Origin: an uncultured delta proteobacterium
GTDB lineage: Bacteria > Desulfobacterota > Binatia > Bin18
Assembly (NCBI GenBank): GCA_963733195.1
Contig: CAVTCR010000048.1
Location: forward strand, 1 to 39,787
Direction of reading: 5' to 3'
DNA length: 39,787 bases
Each line of letters opens with the position of its first letter. Within the stretch, counting starts at the first letter, position 1. Position numbers and translations under genes: made by a program. Positions 14 to 8,904 of the stretch are shown one piece after another. Below the pieces are notes generated by a model that was given only the letters and a program-made list of their open reading frames with translations, searched no databases and was not told the origin of the DNA.

Positions 14-1144
14 ATGTTGCCGCTGTCGTCATCGCCGATAGCGCGCGTCGTACTCGTTCATCCCTCGCCGCCACTCTTTGAAGTCGCCAACATCGTGCGA
101 GCGTATGGTGCCGCGTTTCAGGCCACGCATACCGTGTCGCACGCGCAAGCCCGCGTCTTACGGGCTATTGCCCACTGCCGCACAGCGGCGCTGGGTGGGC
201 ATGTCGAACACTGTGTGAGCTGCGGGACGGAGCGCGTCTGTTACGACTCGTGTCGCAATCGGCACTGCCCCAAGTGTCAAGGCAGTGCACGGGCCAAGTG
301 GTTAGCGGCGGAGCAGACTTTACTGCTGCCGATTCCCTACTTCCAGGTCGTCTTCACCTTACCCCATCAACTCAATCCCCCCATTCGCGTGAACCAACGG
401 ACCCTCTACGACTTGTTGTTCCAGACAGCCGCCCAGACTTTGCAGGCGTTTGCCCGCGATCCCACACACCTCGGCGCCGAAATTGGGATCACGGCCGTGC
501 TGCACACCTGGGGCCAGACGTTAACTGAGCATGTCCATGTCCACTGCGTGGTCACGGGTGGAGGCCTGAGTTTAGACGGCACGCAGTGGCGCGCGGGTTC
601 GCGTCGCTTTCTGTTTGCCGTCAAAGCCTTGGGCGCAGTCTTCCGGGGCAAGTACCTCGCCGGGTTGGAGCGAGTGCGCCGCCAGCGGCGGCTAACCTTT
701 GCGGGGGCGAGTGCGCCGTTGGCCGAGGAGGTGGCGTGGACCACCTTGCGGCACCAGCTCTACACTAAACCGTGGGTGGTCTACGCCAAGCCGCCGTGGG
801 GCAGTCCCGAGCAAGTGCTGAAGTATCTCAGCCGCTACCCCCATCGTGTGGCGAGTGCCAATTCGCGGCTTGTCTGTGTGGGAGATGGTGTCGTGCGGTT
901 TTGCTATACCGACTACGCCGCTGGAGGGACCGCCAAAGTGATGGCACTCAGGGCGGAGGAGTTTCTGCGCCGCTTTCTCCTCCATGTCGTGCCCACCGGC
1001 TTCGTCCGCATTCGTCACTATGGCTTGCTCGCTAATCGCACGCGGCAGGCCAAGCTTGCCCGTTCCCGCCGGCTCTTGGCCATTGTGGCCGCAACGCCGC
1101 TGCTGCCTACCGCCTCAGTGCTGGCCACGGCCACGGCTCCCTAA
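14..1144 (+). CDS. IS91-family (Y2/HUH rolling-circle) transposase with N-terminal zinc-binding domain; C-terminal tail probably frameshifted, true end about 1233
   Basis: CRTAALGGH..C..C..SCRNRHCPKCQ Zn domain; VLHTWGQTL.EHVHVHC HUH motif; YLSRY two-Tyr motif; FLRRFLLHVVP.GFVRIRHYGLLAN. The HWRRITRLLPQRGHPP* tail continues in another frame to TGA 1231-1233. Confidence 0.9.
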   Translation: MLPLSSSPIARVVLVHPSPPLFEVANIVRAYGAAFQATHTVSHAQARVLRAIAHCRTAALGGHVEHCVSCGTERVCYDSCRNRHCPKCQGSARAKWLAAEQTLLLPIPYFQVVFTLPHQLNPPIRVNQRTLYDLLFQTAAQTLQAFARDPTHLGAEIGITAVLHTWGQTLTEHVHVHCVVTGGGLSLDGTQWRAGSRRFLFAVKALGAVFRGKYLAGLERVRRQRRLTFAGASAPLAEEVAWTTLRHQLYTKPWVVYAKPPWGSPEQVLKYLSRYPHRVASANSRLVCVGDGVVRFCYTDYAAGGTAKVMALRAEEFLRRFLLHVVPTGFVRIRHYGLLANRTRQAKLARSRRLLAIVAATPLLPTASVLATATAP

Positions 1145-1463
1145 CTGACCGCTGCCGCTCCCTGCCCCCCTGTGCTGGCACCCACTGGCGCAGGATTACC
1201 CGCCTCCTGCCACAGCGCGGGCATCCTCCATGATCCCTCACCGAAGCATTCCTCGATGGTGGACACGACAAGCTTCACTGCTCGGAAGTCTCCTCACGCA
1301 GCGAATGGTTCTCGTGTGTCCGCCACCCGGCTTTCCCCTCGGCTCACAACCGTCGGCGGCATCCCTTCCACCACCTTCCCTATCTTTGGTCCCCGCTGGT
1401 CGATTCCGCTGCCTCCTCGCCCTCGCCCTCACCGATAGTATCTCCATTGGCAGCGTGCCCTAG

Positions 1464-3149
1464 CCCGGATTATTCATGAGGATGCAGGACGAAACGGCTC
1501 GCCTCTGCTAAGGTCTGAAGCTGTCAAGACTTTCGGACCAGTCGCAAAGGAGCGAGCCGATGGCAGAGGGTATTGCACAACTCGCACTGAACTTCCATCC
1601 AACCCACCCGATCTCCGTCGCTTTTGATGCGCCGCATATTTCCAGTGATGGCGGTGCGCTGTTACTCCGCCAGATGGATGATCGCCTGGGGCTGAGTGAG
1701 CGGGTGGCAGCTTTGCTGCCCGACGCGCGGGATCCGCGCAAAGTGAAACATGATCGCCACGAGCAAGTTCGGCAGCGGCTCTCCCAGATTGCCCTGGGAT
1801 AGGCAGATTGTAACGATGCGGATCGGTTGCGGCATGACCCCTTACTCAAGCGTGTTTGTGATCGCTCCCCCCAAGCCGAAGGTCGCTCCTCGCAACCGAC
1901 TCTTTCGCGGTTGGAGAACGCGGTGGATGGGCGGACGCTGCGCCTGCTGTTACGCGAGATTGAGGAGCCGTAGGTGAGCTCGTTCACCGCCGCGCCAGAG
2001 GTGATCGTGTTGGCTATTGACTCCACGGATGACCCTACGCATGGCCACCAGCAACTCTCCTTCTTTCCTGGTTACTATGATCACCACAGGTATCACCCGT
2101 TATTGATCGTTGATGGAGAGAGTGGACAAGTGGTGAGGGCGGTGCTGCGACCGGGCAATGTCCATGCGGCGCGCGGCGCGATGGGCATCCGACGACGGAT
2201 TCTTCGTCGCCTCAAGCCGCGCTTTCCTCACGTGCCGATTGTCGTGCGTGGGGATTCCGCGTTTGCTGTCCCGCGTCTGTTGCGGCTGCTGGAGGAGCAG
2301 GGAGCGGGAGCTCGGCGGGATCGCCTACGTCTGTGGGCGGGCGCAGAATGCCGTGCTGCTCCGCGCTGGGGCGGCAGCGTTGACGGAAGCCCGCGCACGC
2401 TTTCAAGCCAGCAAACAGACCGTGCAACACTTCGACGCCTTTGCCTACGCGGCGGAAACCTGGTCGCAGGGCCGCCACGTGGTCATGAAAGCGGAGGTGA
2501 GCGAGCAGGGGGCCAATCCGCGCGTTGTCGTGACTTCGCTTCCAGAGTTCGCTCCCGCGCTACTCTCTCAGGCGTATTGTGAGCGGGGACAGTGCGAGAA
2601 TTTTATTAAAGACTGCAAAAATGCGCTGCAAGCCGATCGCCTCTCGTGCTCCACGTTTGCCGCCAACTTCTTTCGCTTGCTCGAACATGCCACGGCCTAC
2701 GTGCTCTTTCATGCGCTGCGCACCCAGGTGGTCCCCCTAGCGCCGCAACTGGGGCGGGCGCAGTTTGATACCTTGCGACTGCAGTTGTTAAAAGTGGCGG
2801 CGCTGGTCTCGCAGTCGACACGTCGCGTGCTCGTCCGGCTCCCGTTCGCTTTTCCCTTAGCACGGCTCTTCCGCCAATCTCGCGCCGGCCCTCGCGGGGC
2901 GCCCCGTCTTGTCCTCCGCGTAATCTGGGCTCCTCCTCACAGAGAGATGGTCCTCTTTTCGCCCTCGCCTTGGGCATCGGCAGGGAGGAGTTCGTCTGAA
3001 TTCCACTCCTCAAGCCTCAGGGGCCCCGCGTACGTCCTCGTGTTCTTTGTCCCGGACTTCCACTACTCACTTTTCGTTATAATTTGGCCTCTCCTTGTGT
3101 TGCATCACACATCTTCCTCCCTCCGCTCCTTGCTCATGAATAATCCGGG
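1464..3149 (+). mobile_element. IS1380-family insertion sequence, inserted downstream of the IS91 transposase
   Basis: Perfect 17-bp terminal inverted repeats CCCGGATTATTCATGAG (1464-1480) and CTCATGAATAATCCGGG (3133-3149); CTAG target duplication at 1460-1463 and 3150-3153. Confidence 0.9.
1560..2923 (+). pseudogene. IS1380-family DDE transposase, disrupted (end approximate)
   Basis: Fragments FDAPHISSDGGALLL, IDSTDDPTHGHQQLSFF, VRGDSAF, YCERGQCENFIKD.K, TLRLQLLKVAA; in-frame TAG stops at about 1800 and 1970 plus frameshifts. Confidence 0.85.
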
Positions 3150-3200
3150 CTAGACTCGATAGCATCCCCATAGCGCCGACGGTCTGCGGGCCGCGGTTGC

Positions 3201-3290
3201 GTTCAACAGGATTTAAACGCCCTGCCAGACAGGGTAAAGGGCAAGTCTCTTTCTTCGTCCGCAGGGCCGATTAAATCCTTTGCGTTGGGC
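3201..3290 (+). other. attC-like recombination site 1 (90 bp), at the right end of the IS91 element
   Basis: R'' GTTCAAC at 3201 and R' GTTGGGC at 3284; internal arms AGGATTTAA/TTAAATCCT and GCCCTGC/GCAGGGC. The R' flank GTTGGGCGTCATG is the exact reverse complement of CATGACGCCCAAC at the end of the next cassette. Confidence 0.7.
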
Positions 3291-3312
3291 GTCATGAATA
3301 CCTGGTGGCGCT

Positions 3313-3339: not shown

Positions 3340-3666
3340 ATGGCGTTCGAGATCGAGTACTTCCACGAGCGCGTGCTCGCCGAGATCGAGTCTTGGCCTG
3401 TCGATGTCCTGGCGGACTACGCCCGCCTTGTCGAGCTTCTTGCTGAGCATGGCCCAAGCCTGAGGCTTCCTCATTCGCGCGCATTCGGGGACGGGCTCTT
3501 CGAGCTTCGTCCTCGTGGTCGCTCCGGTATCGGCAGAGCCTTCTACTGTTTCCTTCTCGGCCGCCGCATCGTGGTGTTGCATGCGTTCATCAAGAAGACA
3601 CAGCAGACGCCAGATCGTGAACTGAAGCTGGCGCGCAAACGCCAGAAGGAGCTGCAAGATGGCTGA
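3340..3666 (+). CDS. higB: HigB/RelE-ParE superfamily toxin (Gp49-like)
   Basis: GPSLRLPHSRAFGDGLFELR..GRAFYCF...RIVVLHAFIKKTQQTP; toxin-first order, overlapping the HTH gene. Confidence 0.9.
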   Translation: MAFEIEYFHERVLAEIESWPVDVLADYARLVELLAEHGPSLRLPHSRAFGDGLFELRPRGRSGIGRAFYCFLLGRRIVVLHAFIKKTQQTPDRELKLARKRQKELQDG

Positions 3667-3976
3667 ACTCAAGTACAGGCCTGTCCGTCACGACCATGCT
3701 GCGTTCCTCGCCAAGGCCAAGGCCCGCAAGGGATTTGCCGAGGCCTACGAGTCCCTGGATCTTGAGTACCAAGTCGCGAGCCAGATGCTCACGGCGAGAG
3801 CCCGGGCGGGGCTCACTCAAGATGCTGTAGCCGAGCGTATGGGTACCACGAAGAGCGCTATTTCGCGCCTCGAGGCAGCGGGCAAGCACACGCCTTCTCT
3901 TGCCACACTGAAGAGGTATGCCCAGGCTGTCGGCTGCGAGTTGCAGGTCAAGTTGGTTCCGCAGAAGGCGGCATGA
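3659..3976 (+). CDS. higA: HigA-like XRE helix-turn-helix antitoxin
   Basis: ARARAGLTQDAVAERMGTTKSAISRLE..PSLATLKRYA; overlaps the toxin stop codon. Confidence 0.9.
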   Translation: MAELKYRPVRHDHAAFLAKAKARKGFAEAYESLDLEYQVASQMLTARARAGLTQDAVAERMGTTKSAISRLEAAGKHTPSLATLKRYAQAVGCELQVKLVPQKAA

Positions 3977-3977
3977 C

Positions 3978-4037
3978 GCCCAACCCGTCGCTCAAGCGGA
4001 CGCGCCTCCGGCGTGCCGCTTAGCTCAAACGTTAGCC
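3978..4037 (+). other. attC site 2 (60 bp)
   Basis: GCCCAAC...CTCAAGCGGACGCGCCTCCGGCGTGCCGCTTAGCTCAAAC-GTTAGCC: classical short attC directly after the higA stop. Confidence 0.9.
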
Positions 4038-4081: not shown

Positions 4082-4426
4082 ATGCGATTACCTAATGGCA
4101 AGCATGCTATCGTTGATCTCCGGAAGTTGCGCGATTATTGCTTGAATCCCGATAGTACTAGAGGTAGACACAAAGCACGAGTCTTTGCTGCGGCTCTCGG
4201 CATCACAGCGGCAGAGGCTTCGCAACTACGAGCAAAATTACTAGAGGCAGCACGAACCGCGGAAGCGCAACGTGGCGAGCTTGACCTGTATGGGCAACGA
4301 TACACAATTGATTTCGAGCTGGAATCACAAGTCGGCAAAGCCACTGTGCGGAGCGGGTGGATCATCTTACATGGCAAGACCGTGCCACGGTTGACGACGT
4401 GTTACATCAAGAAAAGGAAACGATAA
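4082..4426 (+). CDS. DUF6883-like protein (putative toxin), cassette-borne copy 1
   Basis: AIVDLRKLRDYCLNP...GRHKARVF...YGQRY..DF...VRSGWII....PRLTTCY pattern. Confidence 0.75.
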   Translation: MRLPNGKHAIVDLRKLRDYCLNPDSTRGRHKARVFAAALGITAAEASQLRAKLLEAARTAEAQRGELDLYGQRYTIDFELESQVGKATVRSGWIILHGKTVPRLTTCYIKKRKR

Positions 4427-4656
4427 TGCCGAAGCGAAAGATTAAATTGCTGGAGACCGTAGCCTTGCTTGAGGACTTGGCGGAGCGCAAGCTCAAGCGA
4501 GGTGAAGTTGGCACCGTGGTGGAGGTCCTCGCACCAGATGTATACGAGGTGGAATTCTGTGATGAGGAGGGGCAGACCTACGCGGAGCTAGCGCTGCGGA
4601 GTGAGCAACTTATACCGCTGCACAATCAAGGTGAGGCATTGAAGATTGTTGCTTAA
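4426..4656 (+). CDS. DUF4926-like protein (putative immunity/antitoxin), copy 1
   Basis: IKLLETVALLEDL..RGEVGTVVEVL..DVYEVEFCDEEGQTYA; TAATG stop/start overlap with the upstream gene. Confidence 0.8.
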   Translation: MPKRKIKLLETVALLEDLAERKLKRGEVGTVVEVLAPDVYEVEFCDEEGQTYAELALRSEQLIPLHNQGEALKIVA

Positions 4657-4675: not shown

Positions 4676-4771
4676 GGCTAACTAGGCGCACCACCGCATC
4701 GCTGCCCGGTTGCGGTTCGGGATAAATCTGAAAGGGCGCGGTTGGGCGGCTCGCGGTGCGCTTGAGCGTTA
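4676..4771 (+). other. attC site 3, with R' box split by group II intron 1
   Basis: R''-side GGCTAAC; ACACGGCTAAC is the reverse complement of the cassette start GTTAGCCGTGT (4031). Arms GCGCACC/GGTGCGC. GTTA (4768-4771) plus post-intron GGT gives GTTAGGT. Confidence 0.85.
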
Positions 4772-5539
4772 GTGCGCCAAGCGAAGCTTGGCGCTTCTTG
4801 TGGGGTGCAAGTCCCCACTGAGTAAGGTCTAACCAACCACTCATACCGAGTGTTGCAACTGTGGAGGAAGCAGTGACGTAGAGCCGAACGAGACAGTTGA
4901 AGCGTACACAGGGAACCACGTAGCCCGCAGGGGAGACCGCACTGCCCAAAGCTTGAGACAGCCTCGTCACAAGGAGAATGCAGATGGCGATGGTATTAAC
5001 GCGCCAGAAGCCAAGACAGAGGGATCGTTTTTTTTGGTGAGATCTCCGAGGATCTGCCGGGGTCCACAAAGAGCGTGGGAGGCGTGGAGAGAAGCGTCAG
5101 GAACTTGGGAGACCCTGTGGGTTCCAACTTGCAGGGACGCCTTGGGTATGGGATACGGATACTGAGCCACGCATTGGGGAAACCCTCGATACACGGTAGG
5201 CCGGACCCTAACCCCAGGAGGAAGAGCAAGTCGGTAGGCCAAAGCAACCACATGGAGCCAGGTCGATACCCGGCAGGGAGTCGGATCACCTCATAGTACT
5301 CGGCGGGCGGGAGAGCCGTCCACGGGGGGAAGGGGGTGACGGTGGGACGGAGCCTTCATAGGGAACTTGTGCCGGACATGCAGGGCCGGACTATCGCAAG
5401 CCAACCTCCCTGAAGGGAATAGCAATGTCCGGGGTAACCTGGATTGCGGAAGCGAGTCTCACTGAGGAGCCCGGTGCGGGAAAACCGCACGCCGGGATCT
5501 GTGCGGGGGGCGTCGGGTAACCGGCGTCCCTACCGCGAC
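4772..5539 (+). mobile_element. Group II intron 1, ORF-less (768 nt; IEP deleted), probably bacterial class E-like
   Basis: 5' GTGCG; domain V/VI GAGCCCGGTGCGGGAAAACCGCACGCCGGGATCTG...CCCTACCGCGAC ending in AY; EBS1 loop TAACGC (4997-5002) pairs with exon GCGTTA. Only a KPTSLKGIA-like IEP start remains. Confidence 0.88.
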
Positions 5540-5849
5540 GGTGGCTCTTCAAATCGATTGTGATTCAAGAGCCAAATAATGAGAACATTCTGTTTCCAAT
5601 AGCGCACGAAAGATCTCACCTATGAGTGTTCAGCGGAACCCCTCTTGTCTCTCAACTGCCACTGCCGCGATTGTCAGCGGGCCAGCGGCAGCGCCTACGC
5701 CCCGGTTCGGCCGTACCCGTAGCCGCCTTTACCCTGACGAGAGGCGACCTCAAGTATCACCGGGTGACCTTGGAGAGCGGGCATACGCTGGACCGGGGAT
5801 TTTGTCCGGAGTGCGGTTCTCCGGTGGTAATCAAAGGGCAGCGGATGTC

Positions 5850-6912
5850 TAAGCACCTAGGGATAAATTTTGTGGTATAAGGGCGTCTATGAAAACGCCG
5901 ACGAAATTTGTGAAGCCGCTGACCACAGCCCAGCGGGACCAACTGCAAGCGATTATGAAATCCACCGCTCCTCAGCGCACGCGCATGCGGGCGCATGCGG
6001 TGCTGCTCAGTGAACGACGGTATTCGCTCGATCAAATCGCGGACATCTATCAAGTGGATCGGGATCGGGTGAGCCAGTGGCTGGAGTGGTGGGAAGCCGA
6101 ACACCTGGAGGGGCTGGACGATGAGCCGCGCAGTGGCCGGCCGCCCAAGCTCACGGAAGCCGAGCGTCAAGACGCGCTGAGAATTACCTTGCAGGAACCC
6201 CGCTCGATCAAGACGGGGTTGAAGCGCATTGCGGACGAAGTGGGGAAACTCCTGAGTGGGGAGACCCTGCGCACGCTGCTCAATACGGAGGGCTACGTTT
6301 GGAAGCGGATGCGGCGCAGTAGCCGGGCGCGGCGCGATGAAGCGGAGTTTCGCGCGGCCGAGGCGGAGCTCGCGCAGCTGCGCGCCAGTGCCCTGGCTGG
6401 GACAAGCCCGTTTGACTTGTGGTACTACGATGAAGCCGGGTTTACCTTGCAGCCCGCTATTCCGTATGCCTGGCAACGGGTTGGGCAGCGCCTGGAGTTG
6501 GCGTCGAGCCATGGCCCACGCCAAAACATCCTGGGCTTCTTCAATCTGCACAATCAGTTCCTCTCCTTTGCTTTTCAAGGATCCATCGATTCTCACACCG
6601 TCATCCACTGTTTTGAGCTGTTCCGTCAGCAACAACAAAAGCCCGCGCTGGTGGTCGTCGATAACGCCCCCATCCATACCAGTGACGACTTTGAAGACGA
6701 ACTCGAACGCTGGCAAAAAGAAGACCTCTACGTGCAGTTTCTTCCCCCCTACTGTCCAGAACTCAACCTCATCGAAATTCTCTGGCGCAAGATCAAATAC
6801 GAGTGGTTACCCTTAGATGCCTATCAGAATTTCAAAACCCTGACCGCTGCGCTCTTCGCCGTCCTCAAAGGGATCGGCTCAAAATACCGCATTACTTTTG
6901 CCTAGGTGCTTA
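5850..6912 (+). mobile_element. IS630-family insertion sequence (coordinates include flanking TA dinucleotides)
   Basis: Terminal inverted repeats TAAGCACCTAGG / CCTAGGTGCTTA with TA duplication; interrupts the GFA gene. Confidence 0.9.
5889..6905 (+). CDS. IS630-family transposase, intact
   Basis: N-terminal HTH (GLDDEPRSGRPPKL); DDE triad YYDEAGF / VVDNAPIH / PPYCPELNLIE. Confidence 0.93.
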   Translation: MKTPTKFVKPLTTAQRDQLQAIMKSTAPQRTRMRAHAVLLSERRYSLDQIADIYQVDRDRVSQWLEWWEAEHLEGLDDEPRSGRPPKLTEAERQDALRITLQEPRSIKTGLKRIADEVGKLLSGETLRTLLNTEGYVWKRMRRSSRARRDEAEFRAAEAELAQLRASALAGTSPFDLWYYDEAGFTLQPAIPYAWQRVGQRLELASSHGPRQNILGFFNLHNQFLSFAFQGSIDSHTVIHCFELFRQQQQKPALVVVDNAPIHTSDDFEDELERWQKEDLYVQFLPPYCPELNLIEILWRKIKYEWLPLDAYQNFKTLTAALFAVLKGIGSKYRITFA

Positions 6913-7207
6913 ACTTTGGCCTTATCGGCCTGTGGGCCGCGAGTTTGGATGACCCGAGTTGGTTCCGCCCCACCGGGGACAATTTTGTGGTGAGTGCGCA
7001 ACCGTGGGACTATATGAATCCGGGGTTACGGAAGTTTGAGCGGACCCCCACGGACGAGCAAGCGCGGGAGATGCTGACCCTTCGCAGATAGCAGAGGAGA
7101 CGGCGCAAAAGTACGGTATTGCTTATCAAGTGAGGTAAGCTGATGCACGATCTGCTATACCGTAACGAGAAGCTCCAAGTAGTTCTGACAGAAGCTGAAA
7201 GGATTTC

Positions 7208-7537
7208 ATGTTCGTTCCGAATGCAGAGCACGCAGTGGTGGACATCCGCAAACTGCGTGACTATTGCTTGAACCCTCGCCATGATGATGGAAAACACAAA
7301 TCGCGCTTGTTTGCCGCTGTGGGTATCACCGCCAATGATGCGGAAGCGTTACACGCCGTCCTCCTCCAAATGGTGAAGACGCACGAGGCGCAATTAGGAC
7401 GACGAGATGCTTACGGCCAACGGTATATCGTCGACTTTTCCTTGACATGGCGCGGAAAGCAGACCACGATTCGGAGTGGGTGGATTATCGAGCACGGGAC
7501 AGATACCCCACGGCTGACAACGTGTTATCCTCTCTAA
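7208..7537 (+). CDS. DUF6883-like protein, copy 2
   Basis: Clear paralogue of 4082-4426 (DIRKLRDYCLNP..GKHKSRLF..YGQRY..IRSGWII..PRLTTCY). Confidence 0.75.
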   Translation: MFVPNAEHAVVDIRKLRDYCLNPRHDDGKHKSRLFAAVGITANDAEALHAVLLQMVKTHEAQLGRRDAYGQRYIVDFSLTWRGKQTTIRSGWIIEHGTDTPRLTTCYPL

Positions 7538-7553
7538 ACTAAAGAGGTGTGCA

Positions 7554-7802
7554 ATGCCAACCCCGATCAAACTCCTTGATGTCGTGGCGCTGACCGTTGA
7601 CCTCCCTGAATACAATCTCTGGCGTGGTCAGGTAGGAACAGTGGTCGAGATTCTGGCTGACGGCAGTGCATTTGAAGTCGAATTCAGCGATCGTGAGGGA
7701 CGCACCTACGAGTCCCTCGGTTTACGGCTAGACCAGATTATGGTGTTGCACTATGAACCTTTGACTGTCCCACCATCCTCAGCGTCAGAACCAACAGGGT
7801 AA
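7554..7802 (+). CDS. DUF4926-like protein, copy 2
   Basis: IKLLDVVALTVDLP..RGQVGTVVEIL..AFEVEFSDREGRTY; RBS AGAGGT. Confidence 0.8.
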   Translation: MPTPIKLLDVVALTVDLPEYNLWRGQVGTVVEILADGSAFEVEFSDREGRTYESLGLRLDQIMVLHYEPLTVPPSSASEPTG

Positions 7803-7840
7803 GGTTACCTCAGTTTGGGAACTAATGCTCAAGGAACACC

Positions 7841-7935
7841 AGCTAACCATGCGCTGCACCGCATCGCCGTCCGGTTGCGCTTCTGGAGAAGCTGAAAGGT
7901 CTCGCTTGGGCGGCAAACGGTGACTGGGACCGTTA
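7841..7935 (+). other. attC site 4, with R' box split by group II intron 2
   Basis: R''-side AGCTAAC; sequence homologous to attC3 (CACCGCATCGC..CCGGTTGCG..CTGAAAGG..TTGGGCGGC..CGGTG). GTTA plus post-intron GAC gives GTTAGAC. Confidence 0.82.
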
Positions 7936-8738
7936 GTGCGCCAAGCGAAGCTTGGCGCTTCTTGTGGGGTGCAAGTCCCCACTGAGTAAGGTCTAACCAC
8001 CTACTCATACCGAGTGTTGCAACTGTGGAGGAGGCGCCAATGTAGAGCCAAACGACACAGGTGAAGCGTACACAGGGAACCACGTAGCCCGTAGGGGAGT
8101 CCGCACTGCCCAAAGCTTGAGACAGCCTCGTCACAAGGAGAATGCAGATGGCGATGGTATTAACGCGCCAGAAGCTAATACAGAGAGATCGTTTTTTTGG
8201 TGAGATCTCCGAGGATCTGCCGGGGTCCACAAAGAGCGTGGGATGCGTGGAGAGAAGCGTCAGGAACTTGGGAGACCTGTCGGGTTCCGCCTGAGGGAAA
8301 GCCGTGGCGCACGGCGCGTGCGAAGCTACGGGCGTCCCTGCAGCGCTTCACCCAGTGGTGTCGGGAGAATCGCCATCGGCGGCTCAGCGAGCTGTTCAAG
8401 CAGTTAAACGGCAAACTCCGAGGGTATTACAACTACTATGGAGTGCACGGGAACAGCACGAGCCTCCAGCAATTCTTCGACGGCGTGGTACGTAGGCTCT
8501 GAAGTGGCTCAATCGGCGGAGCCAACGGCCCAGCTATACCTGGCAGGGCTTCAAGACTCTCCTGACGCACTTCAAGATTGAGCGGCCACGGATTGTGGGG
8601 TATCCAAAGATGAGAAAGGCAACTGCAATGGCTTGAGCTGGAATGCGGAAGCGAGGAGGGCTGAAGAGCCCGGTGCGGGAAAACCGCACGCCGGGATCTG
8701 GGCGGGGGCCGCTGGGTAACTGGCGGTCCTACCGCGAT
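7936..8738 (+). mobile_element. Group II intron 2 (803 nt), internally deleted relative of intron 1
   Basis: First ~350 nt closely match intron 1; EBS1 TAACGC at 8161-8166. It jumps at about 8290 into the maturase C-terminus; domain V/VI at about 8665-8738 ends CCGCGAT. Confidence 0.88.
8290..8636 (+). pseudogene. Remnant of the group II intron-encoded protein (maturase/X domain only, no RT domain)
   Basis: RTARAKLRASLQRFTQWCRENRH...LNGKLRGYYNYYGVHGN, then LKWLNRRSQRPSYTW in a shifted frame. Confidence 0.8.
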
Positions 8739-8904
8739 GACTTCGACGGTTTTTCTTAAAGTGGAAAGAATTTCAGAGTTCGGCTAATTAAGAGTTTCCG
8801 ACACTATATTCACAGTGTGTTTCTTCATTTACGGAAATCCAGGTACTGTATGTGAGCCAGACTCATCGGAATGGAAGCTATCCAGTTTTCGCCTCTTGCT
8901 CATA

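Follow-up and report, generated by a model that had tools for sequence, protein, structure and literature searches.

Group II introns in cassette sense at the R' core of attC sites in a Binatia gene cassette array

The 39,787-nt contig CAVTCR010000048.1 of an uncultured Binatia bacterium (assembly GCA_963733195.1), in the following called the window, is one of the 87 contigs (C48) of a 6.9-Mb assembly and carries a short array of gene cassettes. Two related group II introns lie in this array in cassette sense and begin at the same base of the R' cores of two attC recombination sites. We explain them as two independent insertions of a mobile group II intron family that homes to the R' core of the attC top strand, and assign a probability of roughly 0.85 to this reading. 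In the proposed mechanism, a loop of the intron RNA, the exon-binding site 1 (EBS1) with the sequence 5'-UAACG(C), pairs with (G)CGTTA of the top strand. Reverse splicing after the A would then place the intron between GTTA and the next purine of the GTTRRRY core, three bases 3' of the G^TT crossover point. Autonomous members of approximately 2.0 kb, encoding an endonuclease-less reverse transcriptase (RT)/maturase of 432 amino acids (aa), would use replication-fork primers, as other endonuclease-less introns do. Co-orientation with the cassettes would allow the intron to be spliced from array transcripts, and intron 1 may have been mobilised in trans by the protein of a full-length relative.

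The two introns, their attC targets and the EBS1 pairing

The introns and their target sites comprise the following features.

4676-4771, + strand: attC 1, forming the 5' exon of intron 1, from R'' GGCTAAC to GTTA of R'; the remaining R' bases GGT lie at 5540-5542
4772-5539, + strand: intron 1, 768 nt, a derivative without an open reading frame (ORF), identified with Rfam
4997-5002, + strand: EBS1 of intron 1, UAACGC, 6 bp with the 5' exon GCGUUA (intron-binding site 1, IBS1, GCGTTA at 4766-4771)
5465-5539, + strand: domains V-VI of intron 1 (RF00029, 44.6 bits; curated threshold 40)
7841-7935, + strand: attC 2, forming the 5' exon of intron 2, from R'' AGCTAAC to GTTA; the remaining R' bases GAC lie at 8739-8741
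7936-8738, + strand: intron 2, 803 nt, internally deleted, identified with Rfam
8161-8166, + strand: EBS1 of intron 2, UAACGC, 5 bp with CGUUA (IBS1 CGTTA)
8293-8627, + strand: frameshifted remnant of the maturase (X) domain in intron 2 (translation, tblastn and PF08388, 27.8 bits)
8664-8738, + strand: domains V-VI of intron 2 (RF00029, 45.5 bits; curated threshold 40)

The Rfam model RF02005 (group-II-D1D4-6; curated threshold 49) matched positions 4808-5075 with 97 bits and 7972-8238 with 93.2 bits. Both introns start with GTGCGCC immediately after ...CGTTA, at the junctions 4771/4772 and 7935/7936, and all coordinates given by an initial annotation made from the sequence alone hold. The 3' ends are ...CCGCGAC at 5539 for intron 1 and ...CCGCGAT at 8738 for intron 2. 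The hallmarks of group II introns are present, namely GTGCG at the 5' end (4772 and 7936), AY at the 3' end and the AGC triad within the GAGCC that opens domain V. In intron 1, CUACCGC of domain VI holds the bulged A eight nt from the 3' end. The loop of domain V comprises 5 nt, GAAAA, in both copies. Removal of the introns restores GTTA+GGT and GTTA+GAC, as had been proposed.

Both occupied targets are attC sites. An attC-family profile was built from nine 5' exons and used to search the genome at E ≤ 0.01, which yielded 67 copies grouped into arrays on many contigs. The top match was attC 1 with 85.3 bits, and attC 2 reached 84.4 bits; compared with shuffled sequences, their closing hairpins had p = 0.015 and p = 0.050, respectively. 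Of those matches that reached the 3' end of the profile, 44/60 end with GTTA, followed mostly by GCC, GGC, GAC or GGT, and the consensus over 46 empty copies is GCCTAAC ... GTTAGGC. As RNAalifold returned just 8 pairs for these 46 sites, the structure was counted from hand-named R''/R' and L''/L' pairs, which hold in 564 of 728 cells (77%). Sliding the 3' partner by one or two columns as a control reduced pairing to 32-36%, and several pairs changed on both sides in a compensatory manner. An extra-helical C is found in the top-strand L'' of 45/46 sites, corresponding to the canonical extra-helical G on the bottom strand. Together with the direction of the cassette ORFs, all of which lie on the + strand, this extra-helical base identifies the + strand as the attC top strand and bears out the cassette-sense orientation claimed initially.

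The genome encodes an integron integrase at C33:20009-20953 with an open frame of 381 aa (TIGR02249, 477 bits; cut-off 265), and no attC of the window family was found on this contig by the profile. Six weaker integrase-like fragments are followed by attC arrays 1.3-5.4 kb downstream on the same strand. These fragments, on C32, C1, C41, C62, C66 and C77, are oriented along the cassette strand upstream of the arrays and are not divergent from them.

The Rfam alignment assigns TAACGC to a domain I hairpin with an 8-nt loop, AUUAACGC, in which it lies. Relatives were collected by two routes. When 60 related genomes were searched at the DNA level, 8 of 61 genomes, counting the window's own, contained matches. 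A protein-guided scan with a single genome for each species identified 303 relatives, of which the best 80 entered the analysis as 79 loci. With profiles for the two intron ends, 66 5' junctions and 74 3' junctions were placed, and pairing was scored over 60 distinct junctions. Pairing of intron bases 226-230 with exon bases -1 to -5 is found in 95, 97, 100, 98 and 98% of them. Where the exon word differs, the loop changes with it (CACTA/UAGUG, CTTCG/CGAAG, GGGTGG/CCACCC and ATTATG/CAUAAU, among others). Because of this pairing of 95-100% with matched changes, we identify the loop as EBS1; the earlier suggestion of an EBS1 matching the attC core is thus upheld by loop position and by covariation. 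A complementarity search for partners of EBS2 and EBS3 revealed no outstanding column (best values 0.79 for exon -7 to -14 and 0.74 for +1), which may reflect limits of the alignment.

Across the first 354 nt, the identity between intron 1 and intron 2 is 94% (332/353). The 5' parts of the two attC sites share only 76% (72/95), and the DUF6883-DUF4926 gene pairs that precede them 56% (326/580) of their DNA. Since the two introns also carry different internal deletions, they result from two separate insertions. The presence of a DUF6883-DUF4926 pair before each occupied attC could instead point to duplication of a cassette-plus-intron segment or to shuffling by the integrase. However, such an origin is hard to reconcile with introns far more alike than the genes and attC parts beside them, with deletions that differ and with 3' exons that differ; the identical deletion and near-identical flanks expected of a duplicate were looked for and excluded, so that we consider it very improbable. 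We conclude that there are two related group II introns, in cassette sense, at the same base of two attC R' cores.

Target words across the intron family

In the GTDB family of the host, represented by the window's genome and six more, GTTA precedes 10 of 11 5' junctions and GGTA the remaining one. CTAAC occurs 92-95 nt upstream in 7 of these 11, and 7 of 8 distinct 3' exons start with G. Across all loci, GTTA ends 38 of the 67 junctions that have at least 150 nt of upstream sequence. The upstream sequences were examined with a home-made test for attC-like hairpins rather than with the IntegronFinder attC covariance model: hairpins closed by AAC...GTT, 45-140 nt long, were accepted at p ≤ 0.05 against 200 shuffles. 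A version requiring exact TAAC was dropped, as it missed degenerate R'' cores. A significant hairpin was present at 24/38 GTTA junctions compared with 4/29 other junctions. The outcomes that the initial annotation had named as incompatible with its reading, such as homologous introns mostly outside attC sites or TAACGC outside the EBS1 loop, were not encountered.

A quick maximum likelihood tree was calculated from 77 proteins, 60 of which could be labelled by target word (29 GTTA, 31 other). The GTTA state requires at least 13 changes on this tree, eight of them forced by well-supported branches. GTTA targeting is present in almost every major branch and under at least nine phylum labels. The simplest reading would be an old specificity for the attC core that was repeatedly retargeted through changes in EBS1, the tree being unrooted and no direction being claimed. 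Sub-lineages whose EBS1 is retargeted to other words, none of them attC-like, comprise CACTA (L057, L061, L076), CTTCG (L080, L082) and CGCCY (L070, L071, L073), and some retargeted members follow other repeats (e.g. CTATAAACATCTCGCC) or terminator-like hairpins. At two loci (L097, 2557-2770, and L106, 2914-3115) introns are arranged in tandem, the 5' exon of the second copy being the 3' end of the preceding one (...CCTACCTCGAT). The PLSDB plasmids contain no member of the family, the best identity there being 43.6%. None of the public sequencing runs contained half of the window, and in four of them (two soil DNA and two metatranscriptome contig sets) only the intron was covered (bins 4757-5572), with a likeness of 90-99%.

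The link to integrons might be incidental, the family simply homing to CGTTA, a word of 5-6 nt that is common in attC sites, and having no adaptation to integrons. This would fit a detectable recognition that consists of 5-6 bp of EBS1, with no EBS2 partner found for exon -7 to -14, and the sub-lineages retargeted to unrelated words by a change in EBS1. It would also fit locus L043, where CCGTTA precedes the intron and the surroundings do not resemble an attC. On the other hand, the 5-mer occurs thousands of times in the 6.9-Mb genome, and yet every assembled copy whose 5' junction is visible lies in an attC site. The enrichment of hairpins at GTTA over other targets, and a GTTA state retained over most of the protein tree, likewise make incidental homing to the word improbable.

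Several points weigh against homing to the attC core as we propose it. Fourteen of the 38 GTTA junctions failed the hairpin test, although several of these look like attC sites of their own genome with a degenerate R''; at least one, L043, has a 5' exon unlike an attC. The junctions are not independent of each other, eight of them coming from one Terriglobia genome. The matches in the public runs are intron-like pieces without flanks and have no bearing on splicing, on empty sites or on this organism. The loss of domain III from intron 2, described below, is read from an alignment of conserved blocks and not from a fitted structure model. Finally, the assembly, which is 93% complete, contains no autonomous copy and no intact protein of the family, a point missing from the initial annotation; the remaining intron proteins do not exceed 37% identity over stretches longer than 100 residues.

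Deletion derivatives, intron class and known attC introns

The full-length form of the family, represented by locus L044, comprises 2024 nt with an ORF of 432 aa at intron positions 624-1922, which is preceded by approximately 620 nt of RNA. Its protein contains a YADD motif and the Pfam domains RVT_1 and GIIM and has no endonuclease domain. An RT/maturase encoded in domain IV is thus a feature of the full-length relatives and is missing from both window copies, whose nature as ORF-less deletion derivatives the initial annotation had not recognised. Of the full-length form, positions 1-651 and 1911-2024 are preserved in intron 1, amounting to every RNA domain and about nine codons from the start of the protein. 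It has kept all columns conserved in at least 95% of the family (65/65 and 41/41).

The breakpoints 651/1911 are common to seven copies in five genomes, two of them in the window's genome (W1, C26) and five in four other genomes (L034, L035, L036, L037a, L037b). These four genomes bear four genus labels, among them that of the host. L036, L037a and L037b carry further deletions, and every one of the seven copies lies in a different attC. The same breakpoints in different sites indicate that one deletion of the ORF has spread as a 768-nt 'mini-intron', which implies mobilisation in trans, probably by the protein of a full-length relative. The copy on contig C26 (C26:1-539) begins the contig at intron position 227, and contig C24 (C24:65404-65504) stops exactly at ...GGGCGTTAG of an attC. 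Probably, the end of C24 and the start of C26 represent a third occupied attC that was broken by the assembler.

Intron 2 retains positions ~1-353 and ~1591-2024. It has lost the first ~320 codons of the protein and the conserved block that separates domain I from the ORF. Judged from the conserved-block alignment and general intron architecture, this block would correspond to the distal part of domain II (D2), the junction J2/3 and domain III (D3), a probable loss of D2-D3 that had also gone unnoticed in the initial annotation. The remaining conserved columns were kept in 63/65 and 41/41 cases. In a tblastn search with a family protein (P0001), the remnant of the X domain showed identities of 87.5% and 95.3% in two frames. 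Intron 2 is probably inactive and a dead remnant.

Compared with solved enzymes, the L044 protein gave E values of 1e-32 to 1e-35 for class C, 4e-35 for the chloroplast-like and 2e-34 for the mitochondrial-like type and is thus about equally close to all of them, which assigns it to no class. The domain V loop is GAAAA or GAAUA in the relatives shown, and a loop of 5 nt is described as peculiar to the IIE and IIF lineages in the relevant passages of Nagy et al. 2013 (PMC3753933). On the basis of this loop we regard the family as not class C. Further traits that it shares with IIE and IIF introns, as far as these are treated in the passages of PMC3753933 and PMC3552965 on these classes, are the endonuclease-less protein, the IIB-like RNA and a decisive EBS1 with a dispensable or undetectable EBS2. 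By loop and protein the family resembles the IIE/IIF type, and it may belong to class E, to class F or to one of Toro's groups g1-g4. A resemblance of its host range to the 'core class F' introns of PMC3552965 serves only as a lead. The words 'integron' and 'target' occur 0 times in the available text of that paper (Toro and Martinez-Abarca 2013), and attC targeting is likewise absent from the cited passages of PMC3753933.

Textbooks distinguish three types of targets for bacterial group II introns and attribute attC targeting to one antisense, expression-blocking lineage of class C. These IIC-attC introns insert into the bottom strand, antisense to cassette transcription, and separate the gene from its attC, according to the sections of PMC3001079 dealing with them; the statement of the initial annotation on their geometry agrees with this source. 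Class C is also the only class for which attC targeting is listed in the pertinent parts of a review of 2015 (PMC4424553) and of an integron review of 2022 (PMC8876359). In the parts of PMC3001079 and PMC4424553 concerned with S.ma.I2 and its relatives, IIC-attC introns have attC as natural target and an endonuclease-less protein, both of which hold for the present family. They are frequently found in the last cassette of an array, and intron 2 occupies the last attC of the array (see below). They differ in belonging to class C, in lying between gene and attC and in blocking read-through (PMC3001079, PMC4424553, same parts). In contrast, the family studied here uses the top strand, lies co-oriented within the R' core, at the opposite attC end, and reads this core by 5-6 bp of EBS1.

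Group II introns in attC sites with an endonuclease-less protein might at first be taken for ordinary members of the IIC-attC lineage. Of the features that define that lineage, the family has the natural attC target and lacks the class C protein and ribozyme and the insertion into the bottom strand. Strand and attC end are opposite, approximately 620 nt of RNA precede the ORF, EBS1 forms 5-6 bp, domain V carries a loop of 5 nt, and the protein is no nearer to the solved class C enzymes than to chloroplast-like or mitochondrial-like ones. Membership in the IIC-attC lineage is therefore practically negligible as an explanation. A different ORF-less group II intron with the classical antisense geometry does occur in the same genome, on the minus strand of C55 (C55:5191-5820, L027 1501-2130; RF02001, 106.7 bits; RF00029, 40.7 bits). 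It lies antisense in an attC array of the + strand and adjoins an attC match without its R'' end (C55:5818-5897).

The closest precedents were reported by Sonbol and Siam 2021, and the following is taken from the passages of PMC7923331 on introns near attC sites. UHB.I2 (IIB1/CL1) is co-oriented with the cassettes and located 'just downstream' of an attC, and H.ha.F1 and H.ha.F2 are 5'-truncated fragments of class E behind attC-like structures. All three resemble the present family in being non-class-C, co-oriented, directly behind an attC or attC-like sequence and in arrays rich in toxin-antitoxin genes. UHB.I2 differs by another class of protein and by having no conserved exon sequence. The junctions of H.ha.F1 and H.ha.F2 were not seen because of the 5' truncation, and these fragments may or may not belong to the present family. 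Neither pairing of EBS1 with the attC core nor a family-wide pattern is reported in these passages of PMC7923331, which also cite a class C intron in an attC's top strand in Enterobacter cloacae, from a clinical class 1 integron, as a single oddity. The class E introns in attC sites that the initial annotation had mentioned match this report, and its judgement 'under-studied rather than new' was right. Full-text literature searches revealed no family homing by EBS1 to the R' core and, among the results listed, located sense-strand attC introns outside class C only in PMC7923331.

From the known attC-targeting group II introns the present ones differ in class, in strand, in the end of the site that they occupy and in the mode of recognition. 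An endonuclease-less, IIB-like family on the sense strand, distributed over at least nine phyla, would represent a second, unrelated solution to attC targeting that appears far more widespread than the first. It provides a natural programmable RNA guide for a site that is present in every integron. It is also a likely hidden cause of fragmented assemblies and of wrongly called cassettes in chromosomal integrons. With the mini-introns, it could be tested whether group II introns that are not autonomous spread in the manner of miniature transposons.

Occupied sites and the surrounding array

The insertion lies outside the attC hairpin, 3 nt 3' of the G^TT crossover. An occupied attC might therefore remain recombinogenic, so that the integrase moves the intron together with the downstream cassette and the retroelement hitch-hikes. 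The first G of the intron preserves GTTAG wherever the site is GTTA. Even in empty sites, the two outermost R''/R' pairs, which the insertion alters, are weak (18/46 and 31/46 paired), and the genome carries an intact-looking integrase. However, an occupied R' reads GTTAGTG and departs from GTTRRRY at the last two positions. None of 53 downstream flanks is shared between copies, the sole match being two overlapping loci of one contig, and in 53 upstream flanks only the attC itself is shared. As nothing beyond the attC is shared, the spread of the family looks like repeated retrohoming rather than transfer with cassettes. The earlier proposal that occupied sites stay usable thus stands as regards the preserved GTTAG and the position outside the hairpin, and finds no support in the downstream flanks as regards travel with the next cassette. 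On balance, hitch-hiking by the integrase is possible but doubtful.

Rather speculative is a wider scenario in which a trans-mobilised mini-intron of 768 nt passing between attC sites of different genera, universal homing to the attC R' core and recombinogenic occupied sites act together, so that integrons ferry a retroelement between genomes. Should recombination still take place at occupied sites, integrons and retroelements would act as coupled vehicles of horizontal transfer. Single-sequence DNA folds of the occupied sites were uninformative, with z values of -2.0 and -1.3 (site 1) and of 0.2 and -0.8 (site 2). The start of intron 1 (GTGCGCC, 4772-4778) is complementary to GGCGCAC of the L'' region (4685-4691), with which it is paired in the predicted fold; we treat this pairing as a probable coincidence of the GCGCAC motif.

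Besides the two occupied sites, the array contains two empty attC sites and the following features.

14-3153, array head: IS91-family transposase (Y2_Tnp, Zn_Tnp_IS91) and frame-broken DDE_Tnp_1_4 transposase gene
3209-3291, + strand: empty attC belonging to another sequence family, with R'' GTTCAAC ... R' GTTGGGC, opening the short array
3340-3976, + strand: cassette with a Gp49 (HigB-like) and HTH (HigA-like) gene pair (PF05973, 3e-26; PF01381, 2.4e-12)
3977-4037, + strand: empty attC, R'' GCCCAAC ... ACGTTA followed by GCC, with the CGTTA target and without an intron
4082-4656, + strand: cassette with DUF6883 (4082-4426; PF21814, 9.7e-27) and DUF4926 (4357-4656; PF16277, 9.3e-24)
5626-7091, + strand: cassette gene of the GFA family (PF04828, 32.8 bits), interrupted by an IS630-family insertion
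7208-7802, + strand: second pair of DUF6883 (7208-7537) and DUF4926 (7554-7802), identified with Pfam

The bottom strand of the first empty site (3209-3291) folds into a single long hairpin (z = -3.28) that none of 200 shuffled sequences equalled in stability. In the second (3977-4037), the R and L boxes pair with a z of just -1.17. The halves of the GFA gene, 5626-5880 and ~6906-7091, are separated by an IS630-family transposase at 5889-6905 (PF13358 DDE_3 and HTH domains). The window contains no integrase, and the array is thus a cluster of attC sites lacking an integrase; the transposase genes at 14-3153 occupy the place where an integrase and attI are expected. On the 3' side of intron 2, core genes follow on the minus strand, encoding a NUDIX hydrolase, a luciferase-like oxidoreductase and acyl-CoA dehydrogenases, and attC 2 is therefore the final attC of the array.

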